DNA of 64,000 bases from Raillietiella orientalis (taxonomy: Eukaryota): the NCBI GenBank assembly GCA_036172245.1, contig JAYWIR010000083.1:248001-312000 (forward strand), read 5' to 3'. Under the pieces are notes generated by a model. It saw only the letters and a program-made list of their open reading frames with translations. It was not told the origin of the DNA and made no database searches. Position numbers and translations under genes: made by a program. How positions within the stretch are numbered: position 1 is the first letter of the stretch; each line of letters begins with the position of its first letter. Shown piece after piece: positions 16,701-39,400 of the stretch.

Positions 16701-17654
16701 ATAGGGTTGCAGTTGCTGCATCGGTAGGATTTATGAACAACGCCACTTTGCATTACTTCACTTTGCGATGATGTACTCGATGAAAGTGAGGTACGCCATG
16801 GAGTTACAGCAGCAAAAAATCTGGGGAAATATATGCAGCATCTTAGTTGATGACCTAGTGTTGATTCTAGCATTTAGATGGCTAATAGAATGTGCAAATT
16901 TAAACGTTCTCTCTGTTTCATCTGGAGCGTCACATCCGCTTGGAAAGGTGAAACAAAACAAATGGCAACATGCTTTAACTTTAAATTAGATACTTAGCTA
17001 TGCCCATTCGAGTGGTTACTGGTAAAGGAGTTGTTTCATCATTGTCCTTTACATGAAAACTTGCACCTTTTTCATTTTATTCATCCATTTCCAAGCTGCC
17101 ACTCTGTGTGGCTCAATGTAAGGGTGCTGAACCACTGATTGTTCTGGCTTATATATTTGCGCCATCATCAATTAAGGTGGGAGCTCCTTGGTTACCATGA
17201 GAAGAAGCAAGGTTAAGTTCTGTGGATGCACATTTTGTTCGTTCTTCTGATGAAATCACTACAAATAGAACAAGCAAGGAAAGGACGCAATAGGGAAAGC
17301 TCGTACTATACTCTGAAACATGGAATGTGCAGCTGCCTGCTGATGTTCAAACCAAATTTCCCTGGATTTTCATATTCTCATTTCCTTAACATTAATATTG
17401 GGATTTTCTTGTATCCATGCTTCAACTGGTTCAAGTTGACGCTGATTCATGTTAGTTTCTCTGCGACGCTGAGTGGGAACGAACAATTTTCTTCCCTTCC
17501 AAATTTCAGACCCTTCATCCATTTAGTCAGCGCAGTTCTTGAAACGCAAGATATCTTTGCTATGGCCGACATATTACTCTCTTTTGCTGCGTACCCGCCC
17601 TTGCGTTAGTTCATATAATTTGCTTTCAATTCGAATGTTTTTTTTTTTTTTTCA

Positions 17655-19557
17655 GAGATTGGGGGTTAGGAGGGATCTTCAAATGCTTCCATTGAGGAAA
17701 TTAGGCTTCCCAGGTTACCTCAGTCAGCATGTGGAAAATATACTTGGAAAACAAGAAGTCAAAATCCGAATTCATGGTATAGAAACGGCAGCCATTCAGA
17801 TGGAGAGAGGGGTCCGTCAAGGAGATGCCCTCAGTCCGATGCTGTTCGTGTGGTATATGGAAGCGGTATCGACAGTCATCCAACGGATCAGCCGCTTCCA
17901 GGGTATCTGCGTCGACAACCAAAGGCTGACGCACCTGACTTAAGCTGACGACCTCCTGTTCTTCCTAAAAGATGAGAAGGATCAACGTGCTCTCTTGGGT
18001 GTTGCCGAACGCATGAGGAAAGGGTTGGACCTGAAGAGCAATGCCTAGAAAAGTCATATGCTACCCATCTTAGTCCTGGATCTCCTAGTAACGGAGGAAG
18101 ATTTCCGAGTGATAGAAGTAAAATTCTTAAGCATTCACCTTGACGATACGGTTGCAACGCAATAGTTTTGGAAAGAGATCCTGGAAAAAGTGCAAGAAGA
18201 GGCAATCAAACCTACCCTGGTCGACTTTAGCATGAAGCGGAGGGCAACCCTGTGGAAGAGTGTTTACTCCCCAAGGTCCTCTACGTAGCTGATTTCTGCA
18301 GCATTGATAAGAAGTCCCGAACGAAAATAGAGAGTATGCAGAAGAAGATTCTATGGAAAGAATACAAGCGGAGAGTCAGGCTCAAACTTTTGAGCCGGCC
18401 TCAAGAGGCAGGTGGGATCAAAGTGCTGCCGCTAGAACAATCCGTAGAAATCATGGATGTGAGGCAGCTTCTACGGCTCACCGAAAAGTTGGATGAATGA
18501 CCCTTTGCGGCCCAGAGAGCCTGCTCAAAGTTGTTGAACTCGAGAGGCCTGTCTGTCCTGATAGGTGCCACTGGAGAGTGGATGAGCATAGATCCCAGGA
18601 AGAGAAAACAGGCATGGGTGAGACTTCACCTTTTCAAGATAGTGCCTAGAAGCAAAGAGATTTGAGAGGAGGAGTTAGCTCTTGTAATCCTATACTTTAT
18701 CCGTTTTCCTAGGGACACTTCTAGGTGGATATACCAGAGGCAAAGATTGACAATAGAACATTGCGAACAAGTCGTCACTAGTGGCAATCGTCACCAAGTG
18801 CGACTGTTCCGCTACTGTCAAAATTTAAAAGGGAAGTTTAGATACAGAACACGGGAGCTTTGGAAACAGCTGCCACATCAAGCGTGGATGCTGATGACCA
18901 CAGCAAATATGAAAGGAGAAATTAGGAAGAAACATCAAGATGACGACGCCCTCGATTCAGCTTCGAGTCGCAACGGACTTGCGCACTCAAACGTGCAGGC
19001 GGTCGGAGCTGCACTTTGGAGAAGCAATGTCCTCCCGGACAGTCAGGATGACCTCCTGCTGTTCCACCATGGAGCCATCCTAAGTGGCTTCTAAATTCAA
19101 CACTGGACCGGGAACATCCAAGATGAAATCTGAAAGGTGTGTGGAGCCAAGGAAACACAACTTCATGCGTTCACCTACCCTGCGCTCCGAGCGGACTGGA
19201 AAGTCATAAAAGCAGTGCCTACAAGGCCTACAAGATCACACTAAATTGGAAGTTATGTCGGACCTATTCCAGGTGAATAGAAACGTACTCCTCTGCAACC
19301 CGACGGTACGAACCACCCTTTTCCTGTTCATCAAAGCAACGGTGACAACAACGTCAAAAATGCAAAACGTCCAGCGAAAAACACCAGCAATTGAAAACCT
19401 CAGAGGATTATTACAAAAAAAAATCGGGATCAGGAACTGTGGCAAAATCCCGGCATGGACATATCGATACTTATTAAAAAAAATTGATGAATACGTTCAA
19501 GCAGCTGACTATCTCTGGCCCACCGGTAAAGAGAATGAGAATAATGTAATGTTTTGA
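17655..19557 (+). pseudogene. 5'-truncated, decayed L1/Tx1-clade ORF2 (AT-richer family)
   Basis: GVRQGDALSPMLF, then LTHLT*ADDLLFFL (YADD with Tyr changed to stop at ~17941), RPQEAGGIKV, and LLLFHHGAI. Multiple stops and frameshifts. Confidence 0.85.
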
Positions 19558-22500
19558 GTTACGAATAAGAATGGTAAGTATTTCACCCCTTCGCTGGTCA
19601 GACCGAGCAGTTCAATGTTCAATGTCGGGTTCTGGGAATTGCCTGCATATTTGCATTCAGTGGACCACTGAATCGGTTTGTATCCTTGCTGAGTACGAAA
19701 GAACAGGCTACGATTAAATTTGCAGTTAAAAGTCTTTCAAGAGCAGAAGCAAAATAACTGTTTTGTTGCATAGAAAGTATCCAAAGAGCCAAATATTCTT
19801 TTCACATATGCATACATGAATCTCCTTAGCTGACTACATCACGAAGTCCTAGAAGTCGGGTTTCTGACCTCTAAGTATCTGCGGGACTCTGGGCCATCCC
19901 CCACCCCACCATAATGTTCACTGCCTCATAATTAATCATCTAATATTGATGAAAGCATTTACTATTTATTGCGAGATCAAATATGGATGGTCAGCTCTCA
20001 GGAATTTTTTCAAGGGTTAGTACATTTGATCTATTATCATAAAAACCTTGAATGAACAACCATCTAAAAATGATTGTTATTCCAATCAGCTAACGCTTCA
20101 TTTAGGGAAATTGTACAGCATAAATTGAAAGTACCTTATGAAAGTTTATTTGTTCTATAATTGCAAAGACACTGTTTGTAGTCGCATCAGGTATTCAAGA
20201 AAATAACAGAAACAGTTTCCATGTAAACGAATGCAATCTCAACGATGATATCTACGAATATACCAAGTAAAAGTATAAGAAAAGTAATTCGCGTTCATTC
20301 ACTAATCCCGACTTTATAACGGTTGAATAACAATTCTATCATCTTAAGACGACTGTGTATCCCACACTTGGAAACTAAAAAGAGTTCAGTTTATCATGTT
20401 TTCACGTGTGCTAACATCATGTTTCGTTTATCCATGGATATCCTAGATGTTTCATGATGTTTTCCTCCTTGCAATCTTGTGGGGGTGGGGGTAATTTTTT
20501 GAGTAATTGAGGGATCCTGAAGAACATTCTTCATGCTATTCATCATTCGCAAATTTAGATGAGGTTTTCCTACAAGAATTGGTGCTTAACTTGGATGCTG
20601 ATTGCAGAAGATTAGCGGCAAAAGGAATCTGAAACATGAAGTGGCATTTCAAGCCTGCCTGAACTTGGCAACGGAAATGTGTGCATGCCATGGTGTAGCC
20701 GTGAGCGCCATTTTTCCCGCGCAGTGTCTCTGGCAAAGCGCGATGTGTACGAGTGCGCGCCTTTTTCTGACACAAAGTCAAGCCACTGGCTGTATCCTCT
20801 TGTCTGCTATGTAATGATTAGTTTTAAGGTGAATAAGTTTTGATGGAGAATTTGTGGAAATGCATCCTACTTTGCCTTAGTATGTTTTATTCAACAATTT
20901 TGCGTAAGAGCACAACCAAATACGGCGACCCTCACGTGAGTACTTTCTGAACTGAATGTTTCAGTGGATTTGGTCGTGCAGTCAATATCCGGAATTGAGC
21001 TGCAATCGGTGAAGTGTATGTTAAAAAATCGAATTATGTTAGCAAAAAAGCAGCGTTTTACACGATGTAGTAGTTAATGCAGACTTCTCATTTATGTTGG
21101 ATTTTTTGAGGGGCATTGGTTTTTATGAGAAAAAACTTATGCAATGTTCAAGTTGAGAGCACAGTTCACCATAAGGGAACACCAGTTTGCTGTGGATGGA
21201 AAATTATAAGTTTTGAATCAGTTTTCAATGATGTGAGAAGTCTAGAAGATAGTTTACAGGATTGCTTGTTTTGCAAAGACCATTCTGATTTTTGTGTTTC
21301 TCTGTGAAGAAAAATGATATGTTCCTTTGTAATCCAGTGCAGCATATGTAACTAAGATGTGATTTGTGAAAATGAAGTTCGTGTTTTATTCGAATGACAT
21401 TCTTGAATTCTTATAAAATTATTCAGGGTATACTTGAGCATTGCTTTTTTTGTCCAGAAACTTTCTAAAGAGGACTTGTATGCAAGATTTGGTTCTATGT
21501 AGCTCCATGCAGCTAGCTCATGTCACATCAGCTAATCAAAGTTCACATGATGGTTACTGAAAAACAGCTGAAACTGAAACATATTTCATTTTTTGTACTA
21601 TAAGAATGAAATGATTATTGTATAATTATTGCATTCCGCAGACCTGCCTTATTGCATTTAGATGAATCGTACTGTGAAGTATTGATCCCATGACATTTGG
21701 GTGGGAGTATTTGCTTTGTTTTCATTTACTGTTTTTGTCATTTACAGTTCCATTTGTTTCCAAGTGCAATTAATTTCCTGATATTGTTAATTTCAGGGAG
21801 TTCACTTCAAAAAAAAAAACTGGATTTACAGCCAGTTATGTCTACGTTGAATGTTGAGTCACTCAATACTTTTTAGTTCCCACTCAAAGATGCTCGAGTT
21901 TGGTTCTAATATGTGGAATACCCTGATATAAAATTGCTTTGAATCAGGTCACCCACTACTATCTGATTGCCAAGTAAACAGTGCTTTTATTTTTTGGTCT
22001 TGATTCAATCATTCATTCATTTGTTGGGCTGTGGCCTGTTCTGAAGGTTATGAAAGGTTTCTTTGGCCATGGTAAGTTTGTTGATGCTTTCTCACTTGTC
22101 ATCACAATCATTTGCATTAGGAAATAGTTTGACGGCAAGGCAAATACAATCTTTGTGAACTTGCATGCTCTTTATAAGGTTTTGTGAAGTTCATGTGGCT
22201 TCACTTTTTGGGGCCATTTTGAATCTTTCATTTTTGCTTATCTGTGTTGGATGGGTAATTATCAGTGAAAGCAAACAATTTAGTCAGTGGTTAACTGTTT
22301 TTTGTGAAGTGTGTTTTTCAAGCAAGTGAATTCTCTCGAGTTAGCATCTGTTACAAATCCTTTATTATAAGAATTCTGCCACTGATCGAAAACATTCCTT
22401 TGATTTTTTCTTGTCATGTTGATGTTTTCAGCAGTGCAGTCGCTACATCACATGTGTACTTACAAAGACGCATTTCCATATGCCATCAACCAGTGTTACA

Positions 22501-23709
22501 GGCTTACCTTGTTGGAAATCGTTGCATTTGTTTAAGTGTGTTCCATCTTATGCTGGTGTAACGTGGATAGGAAATTTCGTAGATTGTTGCAGCAACGACA
22601 TGGATTTCTGGGTATTTTCCTATAGTTGCTGATGAGTAGTTGGCTGATAATGGAGCACATTAACTCACCCACTCTGTCAGGTGCTCTCACTCTGTATATC
22701 TTGCAATGGTAAATTTTGCGGAAGCAAATTTCGCTTCATATCAATTGACAGTGTAGTACATCATTGAGAGGATGTACAGCCGAAGCGTGTACGCAGGGGG
22801 GGATCGAGATGGCTACTGCTAAGTTTGTGTCTTCGACAAAAGTCGAATGCCATCTCTTTCTCCTCAGGTAACGAGGGGTTAAGTGAATGGAATACTTTAT
22901 TGTTCAAGCGTTTATTACATATTGCGTTCGGATGCTGATCACCTCACTAAGCATACTTGACTCACATTGAATAGAACTGTTGAACAAGGTCCCAGATTGC
23001 TGGTTCACCATCATACCACTCAAGAAAGCATCTATAGGGGCGAAGTCGGAATGGGAGCATACCACGGTAATGGAACTCGTGTTAACGTTTGCGTTGAATT
23101 TGGTGAACTTGATTTATAGCTTTGCATCGTGAAAAGCCATGAGGCGAATTGCATAAATGGAAGGTTTCCTCGCTGATCGTCTCGGTTCTATCTCGTCTTC
23201 GTACCCTTTTCTCCTCTAGTGTCGTCGTTATTTTACTCTGATTGCGCTGGGGATGCGGTTCACGCATCTCGAAAGCGCGGCAATTCACCGAAATCCTTCG
23301 GATCTCCTAAAGCAGTACCAGGTCGAAAGGTTTCAGCGCACAGTTTAGCGTTCGCCACTCGCACAGTCCTTTCACATTCCAATACGGAACATTGACACAA
23401 CGAGAAGTAACGATTACCAGTTTAGGGCTAGACATATGGTGGCCTATGCCTTAGCTCGTCTACGGAAATGCCACTCGGCAGCACGTTAAATGGAAAGTTG
23501 AATTCTTTGTCTTTTGCTCGATGTTATGATGATCAGTTCTTGCTATTTGAAAAGCACGGCAACGAATCTGTCTTAATGCTTGAGCCTACACGCCTTCGCT
23601 TGGCACGTATGCGCTTCGCTCAGGTGGCGCACTACGCACGTCTGGTGTCTTTGGATTCCCCCAAGACCGAATGATGCCACTAATCAAAAGGGTTAATAAA
23701 TTGAGTCTG

Positions 23710-24250
23710 GTTTATTGCTGTTTGTTTTTGGAAAGATTACAATGGTTTCTGAGTCATTCTGAGGTTGCTTTATTCCCTTTGAAGACGGTTAGGTGGGAGA
23801 TTTTCCAACAGTCGGTGCTGAGTTTGCTGTGATCCGGATCCTAGTTACAGTTACAATGACGTGTTCGGTGTCCAAGTATTTGATTGATCTTTGATATTTT
23901 GTATCCAATACTATGCCGTTCTTCAGGGATTCAATGAAGCCATATTGGATGGTGTCTTTGTTATCTCTGGTGAAGTCGAAGATAGTTATGGGCTTCCCAT
24001 TGTATAAGTGGGCGGCGTCTCTTCTTTTGCAACTTTGGAGCTCCAAATAAATTGCACTGCGTCCAAGAAAGAGGTACTTGGCGAACCTCGGTTTCCTCTT
24101 TCGTCCTTCATACAGTACATCTCACGTGTGTGAGGTAGTCTGGCGAGTATATCGAGAATGTCATGTTGCCATTCTCGTATACAGAGGCCCTTCCATTGGA
24201 TTAGGGAAGTGATTTGCCTCTATAGACGAAAGCTTTCCATGACGAATTGA
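23710..24250 (-). pseudogene. rep: Endogenous CRESS-DNA virus Rep, SF3 helicase half (copy A, decayed)
   Basis: REWQHDILDILARLPHTREMY..FAKYL..SCKRRDAAHLYNGKPITIFDFTRDNKDTIQYGFIESLKNGIVLDTKY is homologous to the Rep at 26006-27096. A minus-strand AATAAA lies at ~23712. Confidence 0.85.
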
Positions 24251-24624
24251 ATGTTTTTTGCATAGAAAAGCGTGCTTTTCCAGAAGAAAAGTTCCTTTGT
24301 TTTTCCTAAGTACACCCTCTTTTGTGGTCCTAAGATTAGTTCTTTCGGCCGTTAGGGACGTTGTTTTCAGAAACGTTGCGTTTCTTCCAATATAGCGATC
24401 GCATGGCTTTCGTTGTCGCGTTACTTGCAACTGGACTGTCCTGGACGTGCACACGGAACGCTTGGCAACCCTCATTGCGTGCAAGGAAGACCTTACCATC
24501 AAAATGAGAACAAAGCGGGATTCCTCGCTAGTACGTTTACTGCCAGCCATTGCCGTGGACCTATAGGAGGGCTACTGCATAGCCGCAAGCGTGATCTGCC
24601 GAGTCCTCGTGTTGTGAAGAAAAA

Positions 24625-25458
24625 TTGGTCCTGTTTACCCGAAGTCCGGTCCCGCGAGTCACCCAGGTCGAAAAGTTTTTCCAAAGCTGAGTCCGGAGCG
24701 AATTGGGCAGAAAGAGCAAGAAATCGTGGGCGTAAGCCTACGCGGCAGGCGTGCCAGGGCAAGAGCTAGGCAGGGTAGCCAGACTCCCTGTACGCTCTCA
24801 CCACCAACTCAAAGTAGATGCTGAAGAGAAGGGACTCGCTCCGCATCTTCTTCCCGGCTTCCCACCCCCCGGTCACTTGAGAGTCCAGCACTCCAGCGAC
24901 CTAGCTGAGCCTCGCATTGTTGCAACTGCCAGAAGGTCCTGGCGAGGAACAAATTGGCCTCCAGGTGCGCCCGGGAACAGCGTATGTCTGTTGCGGACTG
25001 ACCACGGATTCCGCTACCCGTCCCAGCCTCTCAGCCTAGAGTTTGGCGAGCAACTTCGCGTCCACATTCACCACAGTGATGATACGCCAGTTGCCAACGT
25101 TGCGCAAGTCTCCTCCCTTAGGAAGGAGACGTATAGCTGACCGGAACGAGTTGGGGACATCGCCGCGTTAACGGATCAGCAAACACAATTTCAGCACCAG
25201 GGGAGCCAACTCTGCCGCGAAGTGTTGGTAGAATTCAGCTGGCAGGCCGTCTTCTCCTGGTGCTTTGTTTTTTTTGAGTTTTTTCATGGCGGAGACAATC
25301 TCCGCCATCGTAAATTCCAGTTGGAAGGTGTGACGTTCCTCCTCCCTTAGCGCGGGAGCACCCTCTGGCAGCACACGCTGCGCAAAAGGGCGCTCTGGTG
25401 GTCTCTTGGCGTGAAGGGAGGAGTAAAAATCCCGCAAAATGCGGCCAACCTGCTTTGG
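24625..25458 (-). pseudogene. Tx1-like ORF2 fragment (linker to RT), decayed
   Basis: RDFYSSL..KAPGEDGLPAEFY..LPSSCPGTPA..AYAHD..GTGLRVNRT. Continues the fragment at 27203-27688. Confidence 0.85.
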
Positions 25459-25474
25459 AGTAATCCTGATATGT

Positions 25475-25576
25475 CGTCTTACCTATTCCACCGACTGGGT
25501 CATAGTACCAGTAAATTTTTCGTGTATCTGGTCTGGTTCTTATAATCTTGAGGATGTCCATTTGCCAATTTTGCAG
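25475..25576 (-). pseudogene. rep: CRESS Rep Walker A fragment (copy B)
   Basis: LQNWQMDILKIIRTRPDTRKIYWYYDPVGGIGKT; 33 of 34 residues identical to Rep copy C at 26462-26563. Confidence 0.9.
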
Positions 25577-25599
25577 TCATAAGGTGGAAGATGTAATAA

Positions 25600-25976
25600 G
25601 TGGTCATAAGGAGACAAGCGGTTGTTTGTCTCGTTATTTTGGTGTGCGTGGCATACGTCTGTATTCGAGGGCTTATATAAGGAAGGACATGCAATGTTAT
25701 GGAGGGAAGCTGGAACGTTATATGCGTTGTCCTTGGATAGACTGTGGATACGGAGCAAGGCTGGACCCAGAGTTGAATGTGGAAATGTTTTTGAGTCGTA
25801 TGCACGTGATGAAGCATATGTCTGGAGTGGATATTCCAGACTCTATAAAAGAAGGTTGTCAGTCTGGTGTATGTCCAAAGAACGGACGATTGACTCAGGG
25901 TTATCCAATCTACAGGCTGACTCGTACTTTTTATGTGGAATTCAAGCACTTGAGAGACCCGCCATTGTATAATTGA
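25600..25976 (+). CDS. Probable C-terminal part of a CRESS virus capsid gene (convergent with rep)
   Basis: Open frame opposite to rep that stops 30 nt from the rep stop. It has a PWID motif and ends YRLTRTFYVEFKHLRDPPL, reminiscent of the circovirus Cap end (YVQFREFNLKDPPL). Confidence 0.5.
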
Positions 25977-26005
25977 TGAAAACAAAACTTGCAATGTATA
26001 TATGT

Positions 26006-27096
26006 TTATTGATCTATTTCTGGTGAGGGGGGTGACAAAGTGGAGCATGAGGAGTCGGGTGAATCGCGGGACTGCCCTGTACTAGGGCCTGAAGGGCAGG
26101 CCCAAGGGAGAACAACTCCAGCATCATCTAACATCCATGGACACAATTTTGTAGCTTCAGTCTTGCTGATATTCTTGACAACCCATCTGTCACTGGACAT
26201 CTTGGAGTAGTCAGGTTCCCAATTGGAGAAAACCAGGATGTGAGGTGGTTGAAAGTACTTGATACCGCCTTGGTACTTCGAGTCGAATATGATGCCGTTT
26301 TTAAGTGTTTCTATAAATCCATATTGTACGATTTCCTGATTGTCCCTGGTGAGATCGACAACTATAATGCGCTCGCCATTGTAAATGTGGGCGGCGTCCG
26401 CTTTTTTGCAGCTATGCATGTAAATAGCTGCTTTTTTAAGGTATAAGAACTTGGCGAATGCCGTCTTGCCTATTCCACCGACTGGGTCGTAGAACCAGTA
26501 AATTTTGCGTGTGTCTGGGCGAGTTCTGATAATTTTTAAAATATCCATTTGCCAATTCTGGAGTTGTAAATCGTACATAGGATTGGGATGTGTTCTGCTT
26601 CTTGTCAAACGGAAGCATTCTTTAACAAAGTTGATATTTTTCGAATAAAATTTCGTATGTTGCTCGAGTATGTCCAGTTCAGTGGCTCCGTTTTTTATTA
26701 GTTGCAGTATCTGGAATATTGTTAATTATTTTTGTTATTTTGTGAATAAAATAATTACCATGTCTGGTAGTCTGTGGTTTCTTTGTGGTCTTGTATGAGA
26801 CCGTACGTCCAGGCTTGGTGGTCCTCTTTCGTGCAGTACCGTAAGTTGCTCTGCAGAGATCCTTTGGCGCGTTCGAGATGTGCTTTCTCGAACGGAGGTC
26901 GTTTAAGGCTTGGCAAGGTGCGTGGATCGCGTAATTGAAAATAGCCTTGTAGGTGAGGCGTTCCCGTTGTGGCTGTTTTCTTGCCAATAACTGCGTATGT
27001 GCATTGGCGTCTGCACCAATCCTTGATTTGTTGTAGTTCTTCGTCGAGGTAGTTACACAGTGTGAAACACCAGTACAGAAAGTGCCCGTAAGGCAT
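26006..27096 (-). pseudogene. rep: Endogenous CRESS-DNA virus Rep, near full length, split near 26710-26760 (copy C)
   Basis: RCR motifs I WCFTLCN, II TPHLQG and III YCTKE. Helicase Walker A YDPVGGIGKT, Walker B IIVVDLTR, motif C VFSN, and SSDRW. The stop codon overlaps AATAAA. Confidence 0.95.
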
Positions 27097-27202
27097 GGTT
27101 GACTGCAGGTAATTCTGTCGAGGTGAGACTGGTTTGTGCCTTACGGTGTGGTGGTATAAATACTCGCCAACTGCGCAGTAGATGCAATCTGGTTAGTAAT
27201 CC

Positions 27203-27754: not shown

Positions 27755-28385
27755 GTGTTGTAGGCGCATTTTCTTGGTGCTCCTCGGTGCCGGGAATCCC
27801 CCCTTCAGTGCGCTGGTGGTTCAGTGGTCGTTCAGGCGGCAATGCCTGACGAACACCAGTATCAGGAGGCGATGGCCACGTTCCCAGTGACTATGGAGGT
27901 GGGGGCGTGGGCCTCCACAGAATCTGTCTCCTTTGCGGGGTAGCCGAGTGGTAGCGGCGCGTAGGCCTGCAGCCGCGGCGGAAATGAATGCCTACATGTA
28001 GGGCTACAACCCTCATTGCTCTACAAGGCGATTTGTACTCCGTGAAGTACGTTCGACCCTACGATGCCGATGTGCGCTCTCAACGTGTTAAACAAAAATC
28101 TCGGCGCGATCACCATCCGAAGCGGGGGGCAGAACGTTGAAGTGATTTGCAAAGGGCAGATCTGGCTCGGCGGCTGCCCAAAACTCCCGTTACGATGGGA
28201 AGCTCACTCTTCCCACTACAGTGGACCGCAGCATTGTGGTCCATCTGTTTGGTGTTCTCGCGCGAATGCGCTGTGAATTCCGTGCCGCCCTCAAGCAAGA
28301 TGGTAGCGTGCACGCGCAGCAGTTCAAGCCTTTTGTGGATTTTACGGTACATCAGTGCGAACTCTCGGCCACGCATATTTGCCTC
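27755..28385 (+). pseudogene. Decayed 5' UTR and ORF1 start of a Tx1-like LINE
   Basis: ATGCCTGA at 27842, MEVGA, and IRSGGQNVEVICK match the ORF1 at 39600. Confidence 0.75.
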
Positions 28386-28990
28386 GTACCCTGGAATCGG
28401 CTCGTACGGAGAGAGGGTCGGGCTCCCGAATAGCGCCGCGGTTCTTGCGGCGTCCGGAAGGCTCCGTTCGGCCCTTGAAAATCCGAGTGAGGTAGAACGA
28501 ATCTCGTGCCAGATCGTACCCATATCCGCAGCTGGTCTCCAAGGTGAACAGCCTCTAGACGATAGAATAATGTAGGTAAGGGAAGTCGGCAAACCAGATC
28601 CGTAACTTCGGGAGAAGGATTGGCTCTGAGGGTCGGGCCGGTCGGGCTTGGCCGGGAAACGGTAGTGGTTTCCTCGCCGTGGCCGGGAGCTAACGGGAGA
28701 TCGGCGTTTCCTCGCTCGGTCGGGGCGCGCGCGTGCCGGCGGGTCCGCTCGGGGTACGCTCAGCGGCTGCCTGCGGCGCTCGCCGGTCGCGCGTCGTCCT
28801 TCGTAGCGATACCCGTCTCCCATCCCGGCCTTGCGCGGGATTCCGACCCGCGGAACGGCCTCGCTTGACGCTCCGGTCGGCCGTCGCCCGCCGCCGCGCG
28901 CCGTTTTCTTCTCGGCGCGCGGCCGGGCGCTCTGGTCCCGGAGCGTTTCGGCCGGCATGCAGCGATCGACTCAGAACTGGCACGGACAAG

Positions 28991-29022
<32 letters not shown>

Positions 29023-29050
29023 CGCGATGGCCGTTGCCGGTGTTGACGCG

Positions 29051-29082
<32 letters not shown>

Positions 29083-29125
29083 AGTGAAGAGATTCAACCA
29101 AGCGCGAGTAAACGGCGGGAGTAAC
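28386..29125 (+). rRNA. 28S rRNA gene fragment, upstream of the R2 site (orphan/pseudogenic)
   Basis: Conserved LSU cores GTAGGTAAGGGAAGTCGGC, GATCCGTAACTTCGGG, GGGAATCCGACTGTCTAATTAAAACAAAGCAT and GTAAACGGCGGGAGTAAC, with a GC-rich expansion segment between them. Confidence 0.96.
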
Positions 29126-32100
29126 GTTTTATTTTCCACGTTTTTGATATATACAAAGAATGGTAACCCTAAGAAGGGGAAACGCACTGGGCGACACTGT
29201 AGTGTTCGCGCTGGTGGGAGACAAAGTTGTTGGGGAACACTGGGCCTAGAGGTCAATTAAGTCCCTAAACGCCGCACTGCACCATGGTGGGTGAGCCGCT
29301 GGAGTAAGTTCCATCGCGGCAGGCTCGACATCAATGGCAGGCCTCGTGGTGGTGTGGTCAAAGTAGATATCTCGAGCCGCTCGGATCACTGAGCACACAA
29401 TCTTCGGGCGAACAGCCTTTATTTCGTGTGCACTCAGGCCGAGACAGCTGAGAACGGCATCGTTGTTCGGGTGCCAGCTTCCCAGCGACCCGACAACGAG
29501 TGCCTCCACTTTAACTCTGAGACCCTGTGCTTGGTATTCCCTCTCAGCTCCTCGGTATTTGTCGAGCTTTCGGGTCCGCGCTGCATCCAGGGCTTCCTTC
29601 CTGTTTTCAAACGGGACGGTGACATCCAGGATCAGCATGCGGTTCCCGTCTGTCGCGACGATATCAGGACGCAGGGAACTGTTGATGCTCGGGTCCGAAC
29701 GGTCAATGGCGAGGTGGCGCCATTTCGGACGAGCGAGCGGGTCCAAGAGATCCAGGAATTGGTTATGCCGCTGCATAATGCTGGTCCCCAAGTGCTTCAC
29801 GCAGTGGCACAGCACATGCGAGAGAGTTTCTTTGGGGTAACCACAATGGCGGCAGGCTTCATGAAAGCCGGGGCGTTTCCTGTTACCGTTGAGGTACAGC
29901 TGATTGAGTCTCGCCCTATGGATGAATCGCCAGTCACAGAACCTGATCAATTCTGGTCGTTCAAGGAACGCCATAGAGGCTGGGTGCAGGGCCACGCAGT
30001 CGATGATCCTGCCCTGGTCAGGTTTGGCCCGGAGTTTTTCACTGCGACTAAGGCGCTGCAAGCCACGAAGTGAGCGGGCAACGATCTTGCGATCGGATTC
30101 CCGAATCGTTCTTGTGGCAAGCTGTATTGAGACTTGGGTGTTGGTCACTATCCATTCAACGCAGAGCCTCTTCGAGGCCTCTCGCGCACGAGACCAGTAG
30201 TCCATGGGATCACCAGAAGGCAAATTGAAAGGGGGATCAATGTTGCCATTCAAGTATCCCGCTAAGAGGTCCGGTGAGGGTTCTCGTTTGGATTTCCGAC
30301 GAACCGTTTCACCGAGCGATGCCCAAGCCATTGCACGGATAATGAGATCTGGGCACGTCAGCACCTTAAAGGCAGAGTCCACGGCCATAATGTCAGACTC
30401 CTCAGCAAGGAGGACGAGGCCTAGGCTCCCTCTGGCCACGGAGCCATACAGATATTCCGTTGACGAGGCCTGAGTAAGAGGAAGTATGTCCTCTTTGAGT
30501 GCTTTTCTCAGTTGGTTGTCTAACGCAGCCCAGAAAGATTTCTGCTTCGAGCCCATCCGAAGCGCATGCACGAACGAAGGAAACACAAAAGTCTTAAGGG
30601 CATCAATCTTTTGCCACGGCGCTAGGGGAGCGTCAAGCACTTTGGCTACGTGCGAGTGGATCTCCTCGTCGAGGGAGTCACTGTGTATGGCGTCAAAGCC
30701 TACCGGCCTACCTAAATATTGGTATGTGCCAGAGTCCGACAGCACAGTTATTGGTTGTCCACTGATATTAAACTGGCGTTTGCCGGCAGCACGAGGAGAG
30801 CGAGGGTCAAGGTGGAGGGAAGCACATTTCTTGGGATTAAGATTCAGCCCTAGCCGTTGAGCCATCAAGCTCGCGCAGTCGAGGGCCTGATGTAGGGAAG
30901 CGGGATCCTCAGTCATCACGACTAGATCGTCTGCGTATGCCAGTATGTTGGCGCCTGGGACACTCTGCTTCAGCTGCACACACAGAGGTTCTAGGGCAAT
31001 GTTAAATAGAAGCCCAGATAGCGGGCATCCTTGCTTAACACCCCGAGTGACCGCAATAGGGTCAGTGAGACCGTCCACTGTCACAACTTGCGTGTAATTC
31101 TGGGCATACATCTGGCAGATCAGTTCAGTAAAGAGATTGCCGGCGCCTGCACATTGGAGCGAGGAGAGGAGTTGAGTATGGGGGATGGAGGCAAATGCGT
31201 CTTTGAGGTCCAGCCAAGCGACACATAGCGGTCGGTGATGCCGTCTGCTATAGTCCATTTGGTGTCTCAGCATGAAATTATGTTCGAGAACACCATCGTA
31301 TGGCAGGAATCCTTTTTGATGCGGGCCAAGCACCTGATTGCTCAATATCCACTCCCGCATGCGGCGCGCGAGGCATTTAGAGAAAAGTTTGCCCATGGTC
31401 CGGCTAATCGCAATCGGACGAAACTGAGACAGGTCATCCAATTGGGTGTCCTGCGATTTCGGTATAAGAGTTGTGCGCGACTCTTTCCACTCCGGGGGAA
31501 CCCGGCGGTGGGCAAGACATATTGAAAATCGCCGTGAGGAACCGGCATTCAGGATCAAGCCGGCGGAAGGCAGAGTACGGTATACCGTCTGCTCCCGGCG
31601 CGGTGTCCTCACATAGGCGTAGACAGCTTGCAATTTCCTTCGGGTCAAAGGAGGAAAGGTCCATTGGCTCATGGGTGGGGGCCAGTTTAGGGTCCCAGCT
31701 CAGAGGCTGAAACCCAGGCCGAGCTGTGAAGAGGTCCATGTAGTACGCACGAATGGAGTGTCTGTCCACTTGGCATCTAACCGGGGGTCCGTCGAGGATG
31801 AGCCGAACTGCTCGTCGACGATTCTGGTTGTAGAGCCGCTGTAGAGAGCGTGGTGACAGGCTGATTGGACGCACATTATTCTTGGGAACAGTGAAAGGGC
31901 GTAGGCCCAGGGCGTTCCGAATGGCACTGTACGAGGCGTTCAGCGCTCGCATCGCCAGGCCCCAATTGTCTGTTGTTGCTGGCTGAGTCCCAATGTCGTG
32001 GAGAAGCCTTGCAGCTTCCCCGAGGGGATCCAGGCGCTCCCTCTGATTGTCACGCTGGTTATCACGGGCACGTCTCCGGACGGGGGGCGTTGAGGGACGG

Positions 32101-34587
32101 GCAGGGACAGCAATGCTGTCGGGTGAAACTGTCAGTTCACCAATGTTCTCCTCGTCCAGGACGGCGAATCGTGAACCCGGGACAGGGGTAGCGGAACGCG
32201 GAGATTCAGGCTCACTCGAGAAGGTAATGCGTCTGGTCGGGCGCCGAGCTCCACGGGCCAGGTTCCCCGGGGCATTCGGAGCACGTTTCCGCCGACTTGT
32301 CACTATTTGCCATTCCTGATTGCGCGAGGGATCAGGTAATGGGATGGAGGGTGCACTCGTCTGGGGAACATGCTCAATGACCCCTTGGGAGGGTTGGCTG
32401 GTGGCCTGTGGGGTAACGGTGGTACGTTGGCGAGTTCGAGGCGGGACTGGAAGGGTTCCCTGGCCCCTAAGACCACGCGTGTACCGCCGTTCCTCTGCCC
32501 TGTTTAGCGAGTCGTGCCATCGAGCATGATTCGCAAGAGCTTTGCGGTTAAAGAAGTGTTTCTCGCAGTTGTGCTCAGGGCAGGCGAGTGGCGCTGACTC
32601 CTCAAACCGGATCACTCGCGGGCCACAGCGATGCCTCCAGACTGGTATCTGCACTTGCGCATTGCAACGGCTACACACGAGATGGGCTCTCTCAACCGGT
32701 ATCCAGTGCGCGGTGCGCAGGTGGCGGCGTAACGACCCCAAGGTGGATTTCGCCTGTTGCGTACTGGTATGCCACCTGCAGCGCGGTAGTGGACAAGCCA
32801 TAGTAGTGCTTAGTGGCAGATACACTAGGAGGACGTCGTCCTCAGTTAAGGCCGATGGCATTGCGGGTGCCAGGTCAGTTACGGTTCCCTGGGGGCGAGC
32901 CGGAGCCAACGGTTCAGTCACATGAGGAACTGGGGATGGAACGCGATTGACCGGTCTCCGATCGTGATCCTGTAACTCTATTCGGCCATGGCTCGCCTGC
33001 ATAATGCGTAATTGCCGTTGGAAGCGGGGTATGACTGGGCGCTGCCGGCGGCGTCTTGGTCTTTTCCCCTCGACCGCGCGCACGTACGCTGGATGCACAG
33101 GCGGAGCAGGCGGGGGAGAACGAGATATCTGTACTATGTGTTCACTTCTCGGGGAGACTTGCGCAAGCAGTTCGGCCCCAGTCTGAGAAGGAGACGCAAG
33201 AGTCAGGGTGGAGTGACCAGAGAGCCGCGACTCCTGCACTGGGGTGAGCACTCTCGACGCCACATTGCACTGTGGAGGGCGAGTGAAGTAGTCCAGCTCA
33301 GCCTGGGAGAGTCGAGTCAAGAGAACTCGTGGCTGAAGAGCCTGGTGGGAGCTTCCAATCCCCCCCGTCGGAACCGAGACAGGCGGTTCGAGGAGAGGGG
33401 GTGGCAGAGAAAGGCGACGCTCTTCCACAGCCGATGTCATGGGTACTTCCATGTCAAGGATGGAGGGTGTAGCGTTCATCAGTTCACTAGTTTCATTCCG
33501 ACCTTTGCACTTTGCAGATCGAGGGCGATCCTCGTTCTGGTGAGGAGTACTGTGGATGGCAGTTGTTGGCACGTTGAACCACTTCTTGTGCAGTATTGAA
33601 GTGTCCATTGAGCTGCCTGAGGAGTCGGGGAAATCCGCTTCATCCCAAGAGTTGGGATAGTCAATCTCATCTCCAAGGTCCTCGCGGCCTTCGTTCGCTG
33701 CACCAAGGGCTCTGTCCATATGTAAGTGTTTCCATTTATGGTGCGCCTTTCGCAAGGATGGGCGCCCAAAGGAAGCATTACACTTAGGGCACTTGTACTT
33801 CAGAGCAAGTAGCATCTCAGGGAGTTCCACTGGAGGGTTGAGACAACGATGCTGAGAAAGCAGCATGTTTGTGTTCTCGCTCTTGTGGCACTGTAGGCAG
33901 AAAAAACGAACTGCCGGGATATGTACACCATGTATACGGCTCAAGTGTGCCTTAAGGTTCCGAACCCGGTTCTTAATGTCGTTTGCCGTTGTGGCGAACA
34001 CGCAGTCTGGGAGAGGACAGGGCACAGGAGTGTAGGTTCCATGGGAAATCCAAAGTTCGCGCTCCACGGAGAGCGTACAATGCGACGGAGGCATCGTTGC
34101 AAGATGGCGCCTGACGCTTCGCGTGGTCACGTGGGAGCGTGCCGCGGGGCCAATCAGCGCGCTGGTTCTCCGAGCGGACCAATGGGAGCGCACGGAAGGG
34201 ACGCTAAGTTTTCCCGCGCTCGGCGAGGGAACAAAGGATTGCAAGGAGCGATGTGGTAGATCGTTTAGATCAACCACCGTGGCTTAGATCCACACAAAGC
34301 AGTCACAGTAGGAGTGATGAGGGCCCAGGTGGTCGGTTCGAAGTGCCAATCCCTCTTACCTTCCCAACATGTGTGCTCTCTGGTCTTGACCATGGCAGCA
34401 CACAGGCGGGCGACGGAAATGTCCACAGCAGCCACAAAATTCACCACAAATGTACGAAAGTTGGCAAAAAGGTTCACTGTGGGCAGGGGATGCACTGAAC
34501 GAAGAATCACTAGTGGTCATCACTGAGAATTTTCCACAATCAGAAGTTAAAACCTCATGCAGCGTCGGAGCTCCACTCAGACACGTC
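29126..34587 (-). mobile_element. Full-length RLE-type non-LTR retrotransposon (NeSL/Utopia/R5-like), antisense in 28S
   Basis: Bounded by 28S on both sides. N-terminal zinc fingers; RT (FRPIA, DLKDAF, GVKQGCPLS, YADD, YLG); DWRFIHRARLN; CRHC..H...C; RHN; RPD...DV...KLDKY. The 3' UTR ends AATAAAAC. Confidence 0.95.
29246..34094 (-). pseudogene. ZF-RT-RLE polyprotein ORF with a single frameshift at ~31520
   Basis: ORFs 31434-34277 and 29246-31672 join as ..FLTAIFN/ICLAHRRVPPEWKESRT. The first in-frame ATG is at 34094. No other lesion is visible. Confidence 0.9.

Positions 34588-34617
<30 letters not shown>
34582..34617 (-). promoter_or_regulatory. Candidate Pol II Inr+DPE core promoter spanning the 28S/element junction
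   Basis: Minus-strand CCA(+1)TTC with A at 34615, and GGACGTG starting at 34588, which is +28. Confidence 0.45.
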
Positions 34618-34632
<15 letters not shown>

Positions 34633-34643
34633 ACTGTCCCTAC

Positions 34644-34686
<43 letters not shown>

Positions 34687-34690
34687 AATC

Positions 34691-34725
<35 letters not shown>

Positions 34726-34915
34726 ATCTGGCATTGTGAAGAGACATGAGAGGTGTAGCATAAGTGGGAGGCTTTCCCGCTGGCTTTCTCGGTTCGCGGC
34801 CGCGGTCCGCTCCCTCCCTCAGCCCGCGCCGCGCCGCCTCGGGGCGGGTACCTAGCTGCTGCCGCCTCCCCGTCGAGCGCGGTCGGGTTCGCTTCGGCGG
34901 CTCGGAGGCTGCGGA
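34588..34915 (+). rRNA. 28S rRNA gene fragment, downstream of the R2 site
   Basis: CGTCATCTAATTAGTGACGCGCATGAATGGATTAACGAGATTCCCACTGTCCCTACCTACTATCTAGCGAAACCACAGCC...GACCCTGTTGAGCTTGACTCTA, then an expansion segment. Confidence 0.96.
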
Positions 34916-35300
34916 ACGCTGCTCCGCACCAGGACGAGTTGGCTGGTGGTGATAAGGGAGTCCGGGCCGTGGATCCGGTGTCCGTCGACGTTCGGCTCGT
35001 GGTATGGTTAAAGTAGATGTCCCCAGTCGCCCTGATAACATAGCACACGATCTCAGGGCGAAGCGCCTTTCTTTCGGTGTTGCTCAGACCCAGCCAGCTG
35101 AGGATCGCATCGTTGTTCGGGTTCGAGCTACCCAGCGACCCTACAACGATGGCGTCTACCTTGACCAACCATCTCTGTGCTTCATATTCCCTCCGCACGG
35201 TTCGGTACTTGTCGATCTTGTTGGCCGCGGCTTCATCCAGTGAAGCTTGTGTGTTGTCAAAGGGGACAGTCACATGGACTATGAGGATGTTCCGATTGCT
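34916..35300 (-). pseudogene. RLE-domain fragment of a related NeSL-like element (3' UTR missing)
   Basis: [40 protein letters not shown] is paralogous to 29270-29640. Confidence 0.9.
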
Positions 35301-35875
35301 TCTTGGGGTCTGGTGGGGTTATTTTCGCAGGGCCTTGCTGTGGACATATTGTTACGTGCTGAGATTGCTGTGATTCTTACTATCGTAATTTTCTTCAAAA
35401 CTTCGACATATGATGCTTCTTTTTCACACAGTGTAACGGTATCTTGCGGTGTATTGATTACGGAGGAAATAGATGTCATGTAGGATTCATTACTTCGAGT
35501 TTGCGGGATTAATTGTAGACGTTCATGCTGTAAAGGTTGGAAGGCATCCTCATTGCACCTAAATGACTTGTATGTATCGTATCTTGTGGGATATGCTGTT
35601 CCGAGCGTGGTTCCGTAAGTTCTGATCGTTTACATGTCTGAAGGGTGGATTCCGGTGGAGAGTTGTTTAAGGGGGGAACATTCGGTGCACTCTCAAAGGG
35701 GGTGAACAGATATTCAGCGGGCTCTTCGTCCAAGTTAACTAGCAAGTTGGATTTCTTGCTAAATCCCCAGTGTGCCATCTTGTGAGTTTTGAATAAATGT
35801 TTTTTATCAAAGCTCACGGAGCACTGAGTGCATCTCTGTTTCAGATCAGCGATGGGGTCATGTAGCGTGGTGTTC
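35301..35875 (-). pseudogene. Probable N-terminal (C2H2 finger) fragment of a related RLE element
   Basis: LKQRCTQCSVSFDKKHLFKTHKMAH resembles the third finger LKYKCPKCNASF...HHKWKH of the full element. Confidence 0.5.
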
Positions 35876-35877
35876 AG

Positions 35878-36462
35878 CTTTTTATTTCCACGCTTTTGGT
35901 TGACAAATATGGTAACCCTAGTGAGGGGAAATGCACTAGGTGACATTGGTGTTTTCGCACTGGTGGGACACGGAGAGTCAACGAGGGACACTGAACTTAC
36001 AGGTCAATCAGCTCCCTATAGGCCGCACGAGGGGTGAGCAGCCGGAGTGAGCTCCTGGGCAGCAAGTTCGATGTCGGTGGATGGACGAGCGGTGGTGTGG
36101 TAAAAGTAGATATCTCGAGCAGCTCGGATCACTGAGCACACGATTTTAGGGATAACCGCCTTTATTTCATGTGCACTCAGGCCGAGACAGCTGAGAACGG
36201 CGTCGTTGTTCGGGTGCCAGCTTCCCAGCGAACCGAGAACGATCACCTCCACTTTAACCTGGAGGCCCTGAGCTTGGTAATCCCTGCTGATGCCACGATA
36301 TTTGTCCAACTTTCGGCTTCTTGCTGCATCCATGGCTTCCCCCCGGTTCTTGAACAGGATGGTGACGTCCACGATCAGCATGCGGTTGCAATCAGTGGCA
36401 TCGATATCGGGGCGAAGGGAGCTGTTGATGCTTAGATCGGAGCGTTCAATGGTGAGGTTTTT
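35878..36462 (-). pseudogene. 3' end (RLE domain and 3' UTR) of a second copy of the NeSL-like element
   Basis: SINSSLRPDI..RKLDKY..GSLGSWHPNNDAVLSCLGLSAHEIKAV is nearly identical to the full element; the UTR is shared and ends CGTGGAAATAAAAA. Confidence 0.92.
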
Positions 36463-39400
36463 CACCCGGGTGAGCCGGGGCTATTAATACTAAAATTTCT
36501 TACAAAGGAAAAAATTCCGTAATAACGTCAATGTTTTTTCAGCAATGTTTGTCTTTTTGTCAGCACAGCAGGTCATTGATTTTTCTGGCACTTGTCCTTA
36601 CCGAACCGTATGCCGAGAAGTTCCTACAAACTGGCACAGGGGTGGGAAAAACAAAAAAAAAGAATATAAAGCAAAAAAAAAAAGAATAACACAGGGGGGA
36701 ACACTGTTTTGTCGGGAGGGGGAGCGAAGAGGGGATCAGGGTGCGCCGTGAGGAGGCCTTTGCATCCTGTTCCGGATGCGAACAAGTGCCGGCAAATTTT
36801 TTTGAAGTCGTCGCCAACGGCAGGCCTTCTCCAAATACTTGGCTGCCCAGTGGATGGCATTCCGACTGGTACTTTGTCTCCTTGACGAGGTCCACTTGTC
36901 CGGGATTCCGCGTTTGCAACAGAGCACTGCTACAGTTCCGGAAGCTGGCAAGGCGTCCCGCATCAGTAGGCGTTTAAATAAATTTTTCGTGTAACCGACC
37001 GGAATGTTTAATATCGACGAGAGTCGTTCCCACATCTCCCGGAGGGCAACACATTCCAGAATCAGGTGGGGGAAGGTCTCCCGTTCCCCGCACTCTGCAC
37101 AACTGGCATCCACACTCCCCGATGTCCATTGCTTAAAAGTCCACAATGCAGCTGAAGCAACGCCGTCTCCTGCCACTGCAGGGGAAGGGTGCCTTTGTCC
37201 CAAGACGCTGCGGGCCACTTCACCTCCTCCGGAGGTACGTAGAGCAGTGCACCCCATCGTGAAAGTCCATTCGGCGCGAAACTCGGGGTACTAGCGTCCG
37301 CTAGTTCCCGGGACGACCACGCCTTCAATAATTTTTTCCTGCCTCCGAAGAGGCAGGACACTTCCCACGATGCCTCCTGTTCGCTGTCCCGAACTTCCCT
37401 GAGGGAGGGCAGCACATTGGCAAGGAGGGTGAAAGAAGCCCACAGAAGTTTTCCTGGGTTGGATACGATGTGCTGCAGTGGCTGAGCAGCGTACCTGCCT
37501 ATACGGAGGCAGGAGAAGTCCTCATAGCTGGAGTTGTTGATCTTCGCCCATGCAGAAACCGACTTTTGAAGCCAGGTAGTCCAGTCCGCTGGGATGCAAG
37601 AGATCCAAGGGTTGTCTCTCATCAGGGCAACCAGATCCCGCAGCTGAAACCCACAATGGTTCAGGCTACCGTCGTTGGCTACCGGCAATGAAGTCAATCC
37701 GAAGCAGCCGGTTGCCCTGTGAGCAAGGAGTCTTGCGGGTGCACACCATTGTGCTGTCCAAAACTTTGCCACAAGGGCAAGTTTTCTGAATTGGAGCTGT
37801 CGCTCCATGCGCTCCAACGACAGGAGACCAAGTCCACCGTCTCTGCGTGGAGCGCACAAGTCTTTCAGCCGGACGCGGGGCCTCCGGTTGCCCCAGAGGG
37901 CTTTACGTATAAGGCCCCTAGTCCGTGTCCTAATTTGGTACGGGGTTGGGCACACAAAAAGTAGGGAGCGAAGGAGGGGGGCCGCGAAAGCGTTCCATAC
38001 CATCGCCAGTTCCTGCAAGTGAAACTTGCCGTTCCGGAACGGGCCGATCGCCAACTACACCTTTTGTAGAATGTCGGACCAGGCTTCTGCAGAGCAGAAG
38101 TCCCCCAACGCAACGCCAAGGTACTTGATGTACCTGCCCGTGGGGATCTCAAAACGGATCCAGGCCGACCGTCCGGCTGTTGTCGAGTCCGTGAATAGTA
38201 ACGCCGACTTCGTCCTGTTTACCTGGAGGCCTGTACCACGGTATAGCAACTCGAAGAAATGTTCGAGCGCCGATGCCGGGGTGGACCCGGGAAGCAGGAG
38301 CAGAAGATCGTCGTCAGAGGCCGCTACGGCTGGCGTGCCGGGGCAGGAGCTCGGCAAGGGGGCCAAAGTCTCCCTGTACGCTCTCAGCACCAAGTCAGCG
38401 TAGGTGCTAAAAAGCAGGGAGCTGGGGCTGTCGCCCTGCCTTATGCACCGCCGCACCGGCACGCCCTACACCTTTTGTCCACTGAAAGTAATCGAGATTA
38501 TCGCTTTCCGCCAGCAAGAGCGCGGGTATGTAATCAAGGAGGGTGGGAAGCCCATGCGACTCAGGAGCTCCAAGAGGATTTCCTGGTCAACACAGTCGAA
38601 AGCCTTATGGAGGTCGACTGCGATCGCTAAGGCCCCGTTTCTCGCATGAGGGTCCCTACCCTGTCCCACTAGCGGCCCCAAAGTAGGGTTGCAAATTTTC
38701 CCTTTCCCTTCTTTCTTACTCCTCTGCGCGTGCATCCATGTGCTCGCGCAGAAGAGGTTGTCCTCCATACTTCGCCCGGGAACAGCGTAAGTCTGCTCCG
38801 GACTAATTATGGAATTGGACACCTGCCCCAATCGCGACGCCCACAGTCCGGCAATCAACTTGGCGTCCGTGTTCACAATTGTGATGGGACGCCAGTTGTT
38901 CAATTTTCTCAGGTCTCCCCCTTTCGGAAGGAGCCTCACTCTGCCTGACCGAAACGAGGCGGGAACATCGCCTTCGTCTCGGATCAGCCTGGTCAACTGA
39001 AGCACCAGGGGGGCCAGCTCTTCCGCGTAGCACTGGAAGAACTCCGCGGGCAAGGCGTCCTCCCCTGGCGCCTTACGCCTTCTGAGCCTTTTGATACCGG
39101 CGAGAATTTCGCCGGTCGTAAAAGGCTCGTCGAGGCTTACCTTCTCCTCCCCTATTCCCGGGGCTCCCTCCGGAAGCAAACGACTGGAAACGTCCCGCTC
39201 CGTGGGGGCCTTGGCGTAAAGGGAGGAAGAAAAACACCGCACGAGGTGCCGTATTTGAGCCGCGGCCGACTGCTCCCGGCCCTGATCGTCCATCAGGCTG
39301 GCCGACCCGGATTGCCAGGCTTGACGTTCGGCCCCGGCTCGATACTCCGCCAGGCGACGGATATTGGGGGTCCTCGCGTAACGACGGGCGTATAAATACG

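Follow-up and report, generated by a model that had tools for sequence, protein, structure and literature searches.

Does the retrotransposon that lies antisense in a 28S rRNA gene fragment of Raillietiella orientalis belong to a family that selects this site, or did it come to rest there by chance? The element is located in a stretch of 64,000 nt (contig JAYWIR010000083.1, positions 248,001 to 312,000 of the forward strand), which is called the window below and whose own numbering is used for all coordinates. It is a retrotransposon lacking long terminal repeats (non-LTR retrotransposon) and encoding a restriction-like endonuclease (RLE). Site-specific RLE retrotransposons serve as model systems of target-primed reverse transcription, and gene insertion into ribosomal DNA (rDNA) is being developed with R2. 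The element described here probably represents an uncatalogued family of a known kind, namely Myb-less and NeSL/Utopia-like, inserting in 28S. We lean, by a modest degree, towards a preference of this family for the conserved 28S site.

Insertion of the element in the 28S rRNA gene

For identification of the 28S sequences flanking the element, we applied cmscan with the Rfam model LSU_rRNA_eukarya (eukaryotic large subunit, LSU) to positions 28300-35000. The following features define the insertion:

28387..29125, plus strand: upstream 28S rRNA gene fragment (model positions ~1717-2263, 298.1 bits, high posterior from ~28387)
29125, plus strand: 3'-most bases of the upstream 28S piece, ...GGCGGGAGTAAC
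29126..34587, minus strand: full-length RLE-type non-LTR retrotransposon, 5462 bp
34588..34776, plus strand: downstream 28S fragment (model position 2293 to ~2475-2481, 102.2 bits)

The upstream 28S piece breaks off at 29125 (model position 2263) with ...GGCGGGAGUAAC, and the downstream piece restarts at 34588 (model position 2293) with CGUCAUCUAAUUAG..., where the 28S flank at the 5' end of the element reads CGTCATCTAATTAG. The cmscan alignment and the junction sequences agree on these two points and on the 5462 bp between them, as the preliminary description of this DNA had stated. Model positions 2264-2292, which are UAUGACUCUCUUAAGGUAGCCAAAUGCCU in the Rfam LSU consensus (29 nt), are absent from the 28S sequence, so that the reported loss of 29 conserved bp is also borne out. 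The insert between the two pieces (29126-34587) is antisense to the 28S gene. Both junctions are exact and free of filler bases: on the rRNA-sense strand the 3' end of the element joins ...GGCGGGAGTAAC, and its 5' end (GACGTGTCTGAG...) joins the complement of CGTCATC.... In both junction sequences, no inverted 28S bases were seen at the insert ends. The R2 insertion point, which we take to lie within the missing 29 nt, would be 16 nt from the inferred first nick. Two further proposals of the preliminary description are supported by the junctions, namely that the rRNA-sense strand was nicked first and that 29 bp of the target were deleted; the third, loss of the R2 site, holds with the R2 point placed as we assume it.

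On both sides of the insert, the 28S cores deviate little from the Rfam consensus. The conserved core of the downstream piece stops at ...AAGTGGGAG (34770), after which the expected continuation of the model is absent; the GC-rich DNA that follows may be an expansion segment or foreign DNA. The 28S sequence is an orphan island of ~0.9 kb in a region packed with long interspersed nuclear elements (LINEs), outside any rDNA unit. The near-consensus cores and the almost intact open reading frame (ORF) of the element speak for a fairly recent descent from a real 28S gene and are in keeping with a young insertion into a genuine 28S target. The inserted 28S piece now stands as an orphan island among dense LINE copies and is thus a relic.

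Reading frames and domains of the element

The preliminary description of a nearly intact minus-strand ORF with zinc fingers, reverse transcriptase (RT) and RLE was confirmed, in the form of two overlapping stop-free frames with one frameshift. The element, on the minus strand throughout, is composed as follows:

29126..29245, minus strand: 3' untranslated region (UTR) of 120 nt, without poly(A), ending in ...GGAAAATAAAAC, ~78% identical to the 3' end of a sibling copy at 35880
29246..31699, minus strand: downstream frame, 817 aa and stop, with RT, thumb/linker with DWRFIHRARLN, CCHC knuckle and PD-(D/E)xK RLE
31437..34283, minus strand: upstream frame of 949 aa, in which residue 64 (34094) is the first Met
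31519..31524, minus strand: frameshift site, ..LTAIFN in the upstream and ICLAHRR.. in the downstream frame, directly before RT motif 1
34284..34587, minus strand: 5' UTR up to the frame-opening stop, 304 nt (493 nt if Met64 is the start), beginning with GACGTGTCTGAG

The combined reading frame of ~1680 codons contains one frameshift and zero in-frame stops. Homologues read ..LTAVFNVCLRYRR.. at the place of the frameshift. The upstream frame encodes two triple-zinc-finger modules, long disordered spacers rich in P, S, T and R, and the N-terminal extension of the RT. In the 817-aa frame, the Pfam family RVT_1 was matched at residues 79-317 (E 3.9e-30), and the order of RT, CCHC knuckle and PD-(D/E)xK RLE is present. 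In an alignment of 36 family sequences, all 45 invariant columns are kept in the window protein. Among them are YADD, the CCHC knuckle and, in the RLE, the positions RHN, PD, D and K (knuckle and RLE residues C616, C619, H628, C633, R644, H645, D679, D692 and K711). Judged from its sequence, the copy is probably dead owing to the frameshift. In an Rfam search of both strands of 28300-35000 at E up to 1, which divergent R2 ribozymes may escape, no ribozyme family came up.

Relationship to R2 and to Myb-less elements

Homologues of the element protein were searched in 5.8 billion clusters; among 8000 proteins scored, 300 reached E up to 0.001, and 120 were listed. The best matches (up to 592 bits, 40-42% identity over ~90% of the 817 aa) are uncharacterised proteins of ticks, aphids, spiders, scorpions, a nematode, soft corals and turtles, and no closer match was found among the matches listed. 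RT and RLE also match solved R2 proteins (9nl3_A with 201 bits, 9dou_A with 200, 9nl2_A with 165 and 8gh6_A with 158), where two stretches, the RT and the CCHC-RLE part, align to 9nl3_A. LINE-1 ORF2p lies far below these with ~54 bits. Against the solved R2 proteins, the score is roughly one third of the score against the Myb-less group (~200 vs ~590 bits). The relatives also carry FxDWRF[IV]HRARLN, GALGSWDPxN and an N-terminal CCHH-CCHC-CCHH module. The motif GSLGSWHPNND of the window protein aligns with GARGKWHQDN of a solved R2 protein and does not discriminate between the groups, because R2 has this equivalent. Of the earlier proposal that the protein motifs are NeSL/Utopia-like, the placement fits the stronger matches to the Myb-less group; GSLGSWHPNND, found also in R2, drops out as a specific sign of it.

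A FastTree phylogeny was calculated from 112 unlabelled rows, consisting of the query and 111 hits from the listed 120, with nine unnamed hits below 750 aa excluded. The query forms a long branch (1.18 vs a median of 0.22) and is sister to an arthropod clade of 45 rows with a local support of 99. The hosts of the best matches coincide with the Utopia host list in Table 1 of PMC4640811; this agreement is circumstantial. From the protein comparisons, the element is probably a member of the Myb-less NeSL/Utopia-like assemblage and not of R2 proper.

Zinc-finger modules

Two zinc-finger modules of the same composition were found in the upstream frame:

33690..34019, minus strand: module A (CCHH, CCHC, CCHH), extra and more diverged, one homologue match (E 3.6e-6), predicted local distance difference test (pLDDT) score ~58-69
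32421..32927, minus strand: module B (CCHH, CCHC, CCHH), nine homologue matches (best E 1.1e-11), pLDDT 86-95

Module B is the counterpart of the single N-terminal module of the homologues. The two modules share 26% identity over 107 aa (E 1e-6) and represent an old duplication or a capture instead of a recent repeat. Residues 64-949 (886 residues) were modelled with AlphaFold at a mean pLDDT of 55.6, and the stretch from the fingers to the RT is predicted to be disordered.

A Myb family was not found in Pfam at E up to 10. In a phmmer search of the N-terminal 949 aa against the PDB, solved R2 chains were matched by the N-terminal RT extension only. For the 886-residue model, Foldseek listed nothing at E up to 0.001, and in VIA-align its best matches (Z 5.6) were generic helical bundles, with no Myb protein listed. 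Module B folded alone reached a mean pLDDT of 80.3. Here, too, Foldseek had no hit within E 0.001; lineage-A R2 proteins ranked first, with R2Tg at rank 1 (E 0.42), and its best VIA-align matches were generic C2H2 fingers at Z 4.2, with R2 chains at Z 3.4-3.6. Fingers 1 and 2 of module B were superposed on lineage-A R2 chains, at the first 60-66 residues modelled in these, with a root mean square deviation of 3.6 A over 60-62 residues, at a Z of 3.4-3.6, which is below the trustworthy level. A ZnF3:2 co-fold has been reported for some Utopia proteins (PMC13188248). We dropped the claim that the window protein shares this co-fold, the Foldseek E of 0.42 and the Z of 3.4-3.6 being too weak.

Site specificity

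Is the 28S site a target of the family? In favour of specificity are the exact junctions, which lie in the most conserved core of a tiny target of 0.9 kb. Most RLE non-LTR elements are target-specific for repeated genes, according to PMC4640811, and 28S is a known target of related NeSL-clade families. A second, truncated copy of the family is located in the window, together with a fragment of a related element:

35880..36468, minus strand: 5'-truncated sibling copy with a homologous 3' UTR, 77.7% identical over 592 nucleotide columns and 78.8% over 146 aa
34905..35288, minus strand: related-element fragment, RLE C-terminus, 58.6% aa identity over 128 aa, adjoining the downstream 28S piece

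Metagenomic relatives were collected by profile search, and 80 of 463 confirmed loci were kept; an RLE-like C-terminus was found in only eight of the 80. Rfam was run on 26 of these 80 loci, nine at E up to 0.01 and 17 at the gathering score. The nine gave no Rfam match, and the 17 gave only a U2 and a U5 gene, both in the same contig, L029. The exact 20-nt 3' junction had no match in metagenome contigs, and the 21-nt 3' end of the element had none in viral contigs. A single match of this 3' end in prokaryote genome contigs was rejected as a chance 23-mer in an AT-rich archaeal metagenome-assembled genome, without further similarity.

In L029, positions 1740-5960 are occupied by an apurinic/apyrimidinic endonuclease (APE)-type LINE with a 1183-aa ORF2 and a CCHC ORF1. 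Its A-rich 3' end joins the U2 small nuclear RNA (snRNA) gene at ...TCTGTTCTTATCAG, and the U5 gene follows 600 bp downstream. Keno shares this U2 site (PMC4640811). As an APE-type, Keno-like LINE, L029 was rejected as a Utopia reference.

A number of observations weigh against a 28S-specific, Myb-less family. The 28S junction was seen in one copy, and both junctions are known from the assembled contig alone. The one full-length copy lies in 28S and the one sibling copy with a 3' end does not; its 3' flank is neither 28S nor U2, which confirms the earlier remark that the copy ending near 35880 is not beside 28S. Rfam scans of the whole window revealed no other LSU, 18S or 5.8S sequence. Because the 28S piece is an orphan of ~0.9 kb with no other rRNA within 64 kb, the target at the time of insertion need not, to judge from the sequence, have been an rDNA unit. 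None of the 80 metagenomic relatives has a 28S flank by blastn against the 28S of the window, and none of the 26 loci scanned with Rfam has an rRNA flank. As for the placement, the tree rows are unlabelled and the query is on a long branch. R2 clades A and D are themselves very distant from each other, and the element may hold a deep position in the R2 superclade. The absence of Myb in profiles and models is a non-detection and no proof. Thus, of the separate 28S-specific family that had been proposed, the antisense orientation stands, and the specificity does not follow from one copy in an orphan 28S piece with a sibling elsewhere.

We consider it rather unlikely that the family has no or weak target specificity, comparable to reptile Utopia and R2NS, and landed by chance in a stray 28S piece, with the loss of 29 bp as an ordinary target deletion. 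The flank of the sibling copy and the lack of relatives with a 28S flank (0/80 by blastn, 0/26 with Rfam) would fit such an event, as would the position of the 28S sequence as an orphan island amid at least a dozen LINE pieces. Weak or lost specificity is also documented in families (PMC4640811 and PMC5035012). However, a 28S piece of 0.9 kb is a very small target for random insertion, and it was hit in its most conserved core, with exact junctions and zero filler bases. The mostly target-specific behaviour of RLE elements (PMC4640811) argues against chance as well, and a second related fragment also adjoins the same 28S piece. An oyster family with one of two copies beside 28S was termed 'not totally non-specific' (Kojima et al., PMC5035012).

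Alternatively, the family could be aimed at another repeated gene, for example the U2 snRNA gene, as Utopia is, and the 28S sequence could be an off-target look-alike. The closest relatives among the matches listed are from taxa with described Utopia elements, and Utopia families also insert at U2-like short sequences outside U2 (PMC4640811). No U2 or other small RNA gene was found in the window by the Rfam scans, however. About nine of 22 positions are common to the 28S site and to what we take to be the U2 site, a weak comparison by eye. The sibling copy is not in U2 either, and we regard this explanation as improbable.

It is very improbable that the element is a true R2 that was inverted or placed in a mis-assembled contig: its RT and RLE are homologous to R2, it lies within 16 nt of the presumed R2 point and its junctions come from the assembled contig alone, but these junctions are off the R2 point, the 29 bp are missing and not inverted, the lack of inverted 28S pieces at the insert ends excludes a local inversion of a sense R2, the scores against solved R2 proteins reach roughly one third of those against the Myb-less group, and Myb and the 5' ribozyme were undetected.

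The preference for the conserved 28S site hence remains our reading, at the modest strength given above. A stricter form of it is possible but doubtful. In this form, the element would represent an uncatalogued, strictly 28S-specific Myb-less RLE lineage with doubled triple-finger recognition, a sense-strand nick 16 nt upstream of the presumed R2 point, antisense insertion, its own promoter and deletion of the R2 site. If this were true, the lineage would compete with R2 for rDNA units and exclude it, and it would be a natural safe-harbour inserter with DNA recognition unlike the zinc finger-Myb module of R2.

Proposed mechanism of insertion

The steps of a possible insertion mechanism are modelled on target-primed reverse transcription of R2 and on the cleavage geometry of Utopia. 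The protein would bind the 28S duplex via its zinc fingers, and the RLE would nick the rRNA-sense strand at Rfam positions 2263/2264, where ...GAGTAAC borders on TATGAC.... The priming nick is placed on the sense strand because the 3' end of the element is joined to ...GGCGGGAGTAAC of that strand. The freed 3'-OH would then prime cDNA synthesis on the 3' end of the element RNA. A second nick would follow on the antisense strand 29 nt further (2292/2293), with loss of the intervening bases, since the 5' end is joined without filler. The R2 site, if it lies within these 29 bp as we take it to do, would be lost with them, and an occupied unit would no longer be an R2 target. As the element is antisense, it could not be co-transcribed with the Pol I rRNA, unlike R2. 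Its transcription would depend on a promoter within its own 304-493-nt 5' UTR or on antisense read-through. In R2, the rRNA-antisense strand is nicked first (PMC11204384), whereas the junctions found here imply that the sense strand was nicked first. Staggered nicks were used to explain a deletion in the Utopia paper as well (PMC4640811).

A further family would provide a data point on shifts of target choice in the assemblage of R2, NeSL and Utopia. In addition, it would exemplify the removal of one element's site by another, which bears on competition for rDNA units, and would be a candidate for DNA recognition without a Myb domain. At present its value is that of a lead, which consists of one damaged copy in an orphan 28S fragment.

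Genomic neighbourhood of the 28S fragment

Between 8414 and 64000, a single APE-type LINE family is represented in the window by a dozen pieces or more, which are 53-75% identical in protein. An unbroken copy at 50913-54509 (minus strand) encodes an ORF of 1199 aa with Exo_endo_phos, RVT_1 and zf-RVT. This ORF had only four database matches at E <=1e-20. The host lineage seems barely sampled, because the best of these are only 23-28% identical. The left edge of the 28S sequence (~28387) adjoins the 5' region of a minus-strand APE-type LINE, whose residues 181-337 map to 27668-27190, left of the 28S.

Two adjoining minus-strand frames at 26006-27192 resemble the Rep of CRESS/circovirus-like, circular single-stranded DNA viruses. 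The first (26758-27192) matches Viral_Rep (PF02407) at E 8.3e-15 and contains the motifs HLQGY and YCTKE; the second (26009-26725) shows a weak match to the P-loop of RNA_helicase (E 0.0015). They look like an endogenous viral fragment and are flanked by two pieces of a LINE copy. The G+C content is 34-48% over ~13 kb (14000-27000), compared with 55-62% around it. At 57125-57179, 55 nt weakly match a microRNA hairpin family on both strands (34.6 and 34.2 bits, at a gathering score of 82). A match on both strands implies a near-perfect palindrome, which is probably located within a LINE 5' region.

The RLE fragment at 34905-35288, with a hypothetical 3' UTR of 120 nt, would end at ~34776, where the 28S core stops. 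This may mark a second antisense insertion in 28S, a reading that we set aside: in its high G+C content the intervening DNA resembles the expansion segments of this 28S, and it fails to align to the other 3' UTRs. Between this fragment and the sibling copy, 590 bp of AT-richer DNA (35289-35879, minus strand) encode one weak C2H2 finger (CTQCSVSFDKKHLFKTHKMAH, E 0.14-0.35). A candidate reading of the region as the 5' portion of a further RLE element in tandem is unsupported.

Comparison with known systems

R2 elements (clades A-D) share with the element the homologous RT-CCHC-RLE core, N-terminal zinc fingers and a target in 28S, which lies within 16 nt of the presumed R2 point. They insert in sense orientation, whereas the element here is antisense and its junctions (2263/2264 and 2292/2293) are off that point. 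Myb and the hepatitis delta virus (HDV)-like 5' ribozyme of R2 were undetected here. Other R2-superclade lineages, R9 of rotifers and R8 of hydra, have moved to other rDNA sites (PMC5035012).

Utopia elements have a single ORF whose N-terminus holds one to three zinc fingers, followed by RT and by a C-terminal finger with RLE (PMC4640811), and the domain plan of the element fits this description. Utopia is set apart from R2 by the lack of Myb (Hassan et al., PMC13188248). Myb is undetected here, and the precise 3' junction and a deletion that fits staggered nicks are further likenesses. Utopia inserts in U2 at nt 38/39 in sense orientation, whereas the element here lies in 28S in antisense. 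It also differs from Utopia in having two triple-finger modules instead of one finger module. The presumed Utopia-like proteins are only ~40% identical to it, and it stands on a long branch.

Antisense insertion in 28S is less of a novelty than the preliminary description implied. LIN9_SM, LIN24_SM and LIN26_SM of Schmidtea mediterranea, which belong to the NeSL clade, were found in 28S, and S6 Fig of PMC4640811 draws their 3' ends joined to a '28S rDNA' line which is the reverse complement of the rRNA. That these elements are antisense to the rRNA is our own reading of the figure; the word 'antisense' does not occur in the text of that paper. Compared by the description of their insertion only, they resemble the element in being RLE-type, site-specific in 28S and antisense. 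LIN24 and LIN26 also lie in the conserved region immediately upstream of the R2 site, and their 28S line starts with the complement of bases that are deleted here. Their 3' junction corresponds to 29054/29055 in the window, ~71-73 nt upstream (rRNA sense) of 29125/29126, as drawn in the same figure. LIN9 inserts far downstream in 28S, unlike the element here. The LIN elements, as depicted there, end in a T/A run, which the element lacks, and their hosts are AT-rich flatworms.

No description of an antisense RLE element at this 28S position was found in the full-text literature searched; Repbase, the R5 paper, the supplements of PMC13188248 and the inventory of Fell et al. (PMC13580325) were outside this scope and may list one. 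Nothing found matches the element in its site, in its doubled finger module or in its sequence family, and antisense 28S insertion by an element of the NeSL clade is already known.

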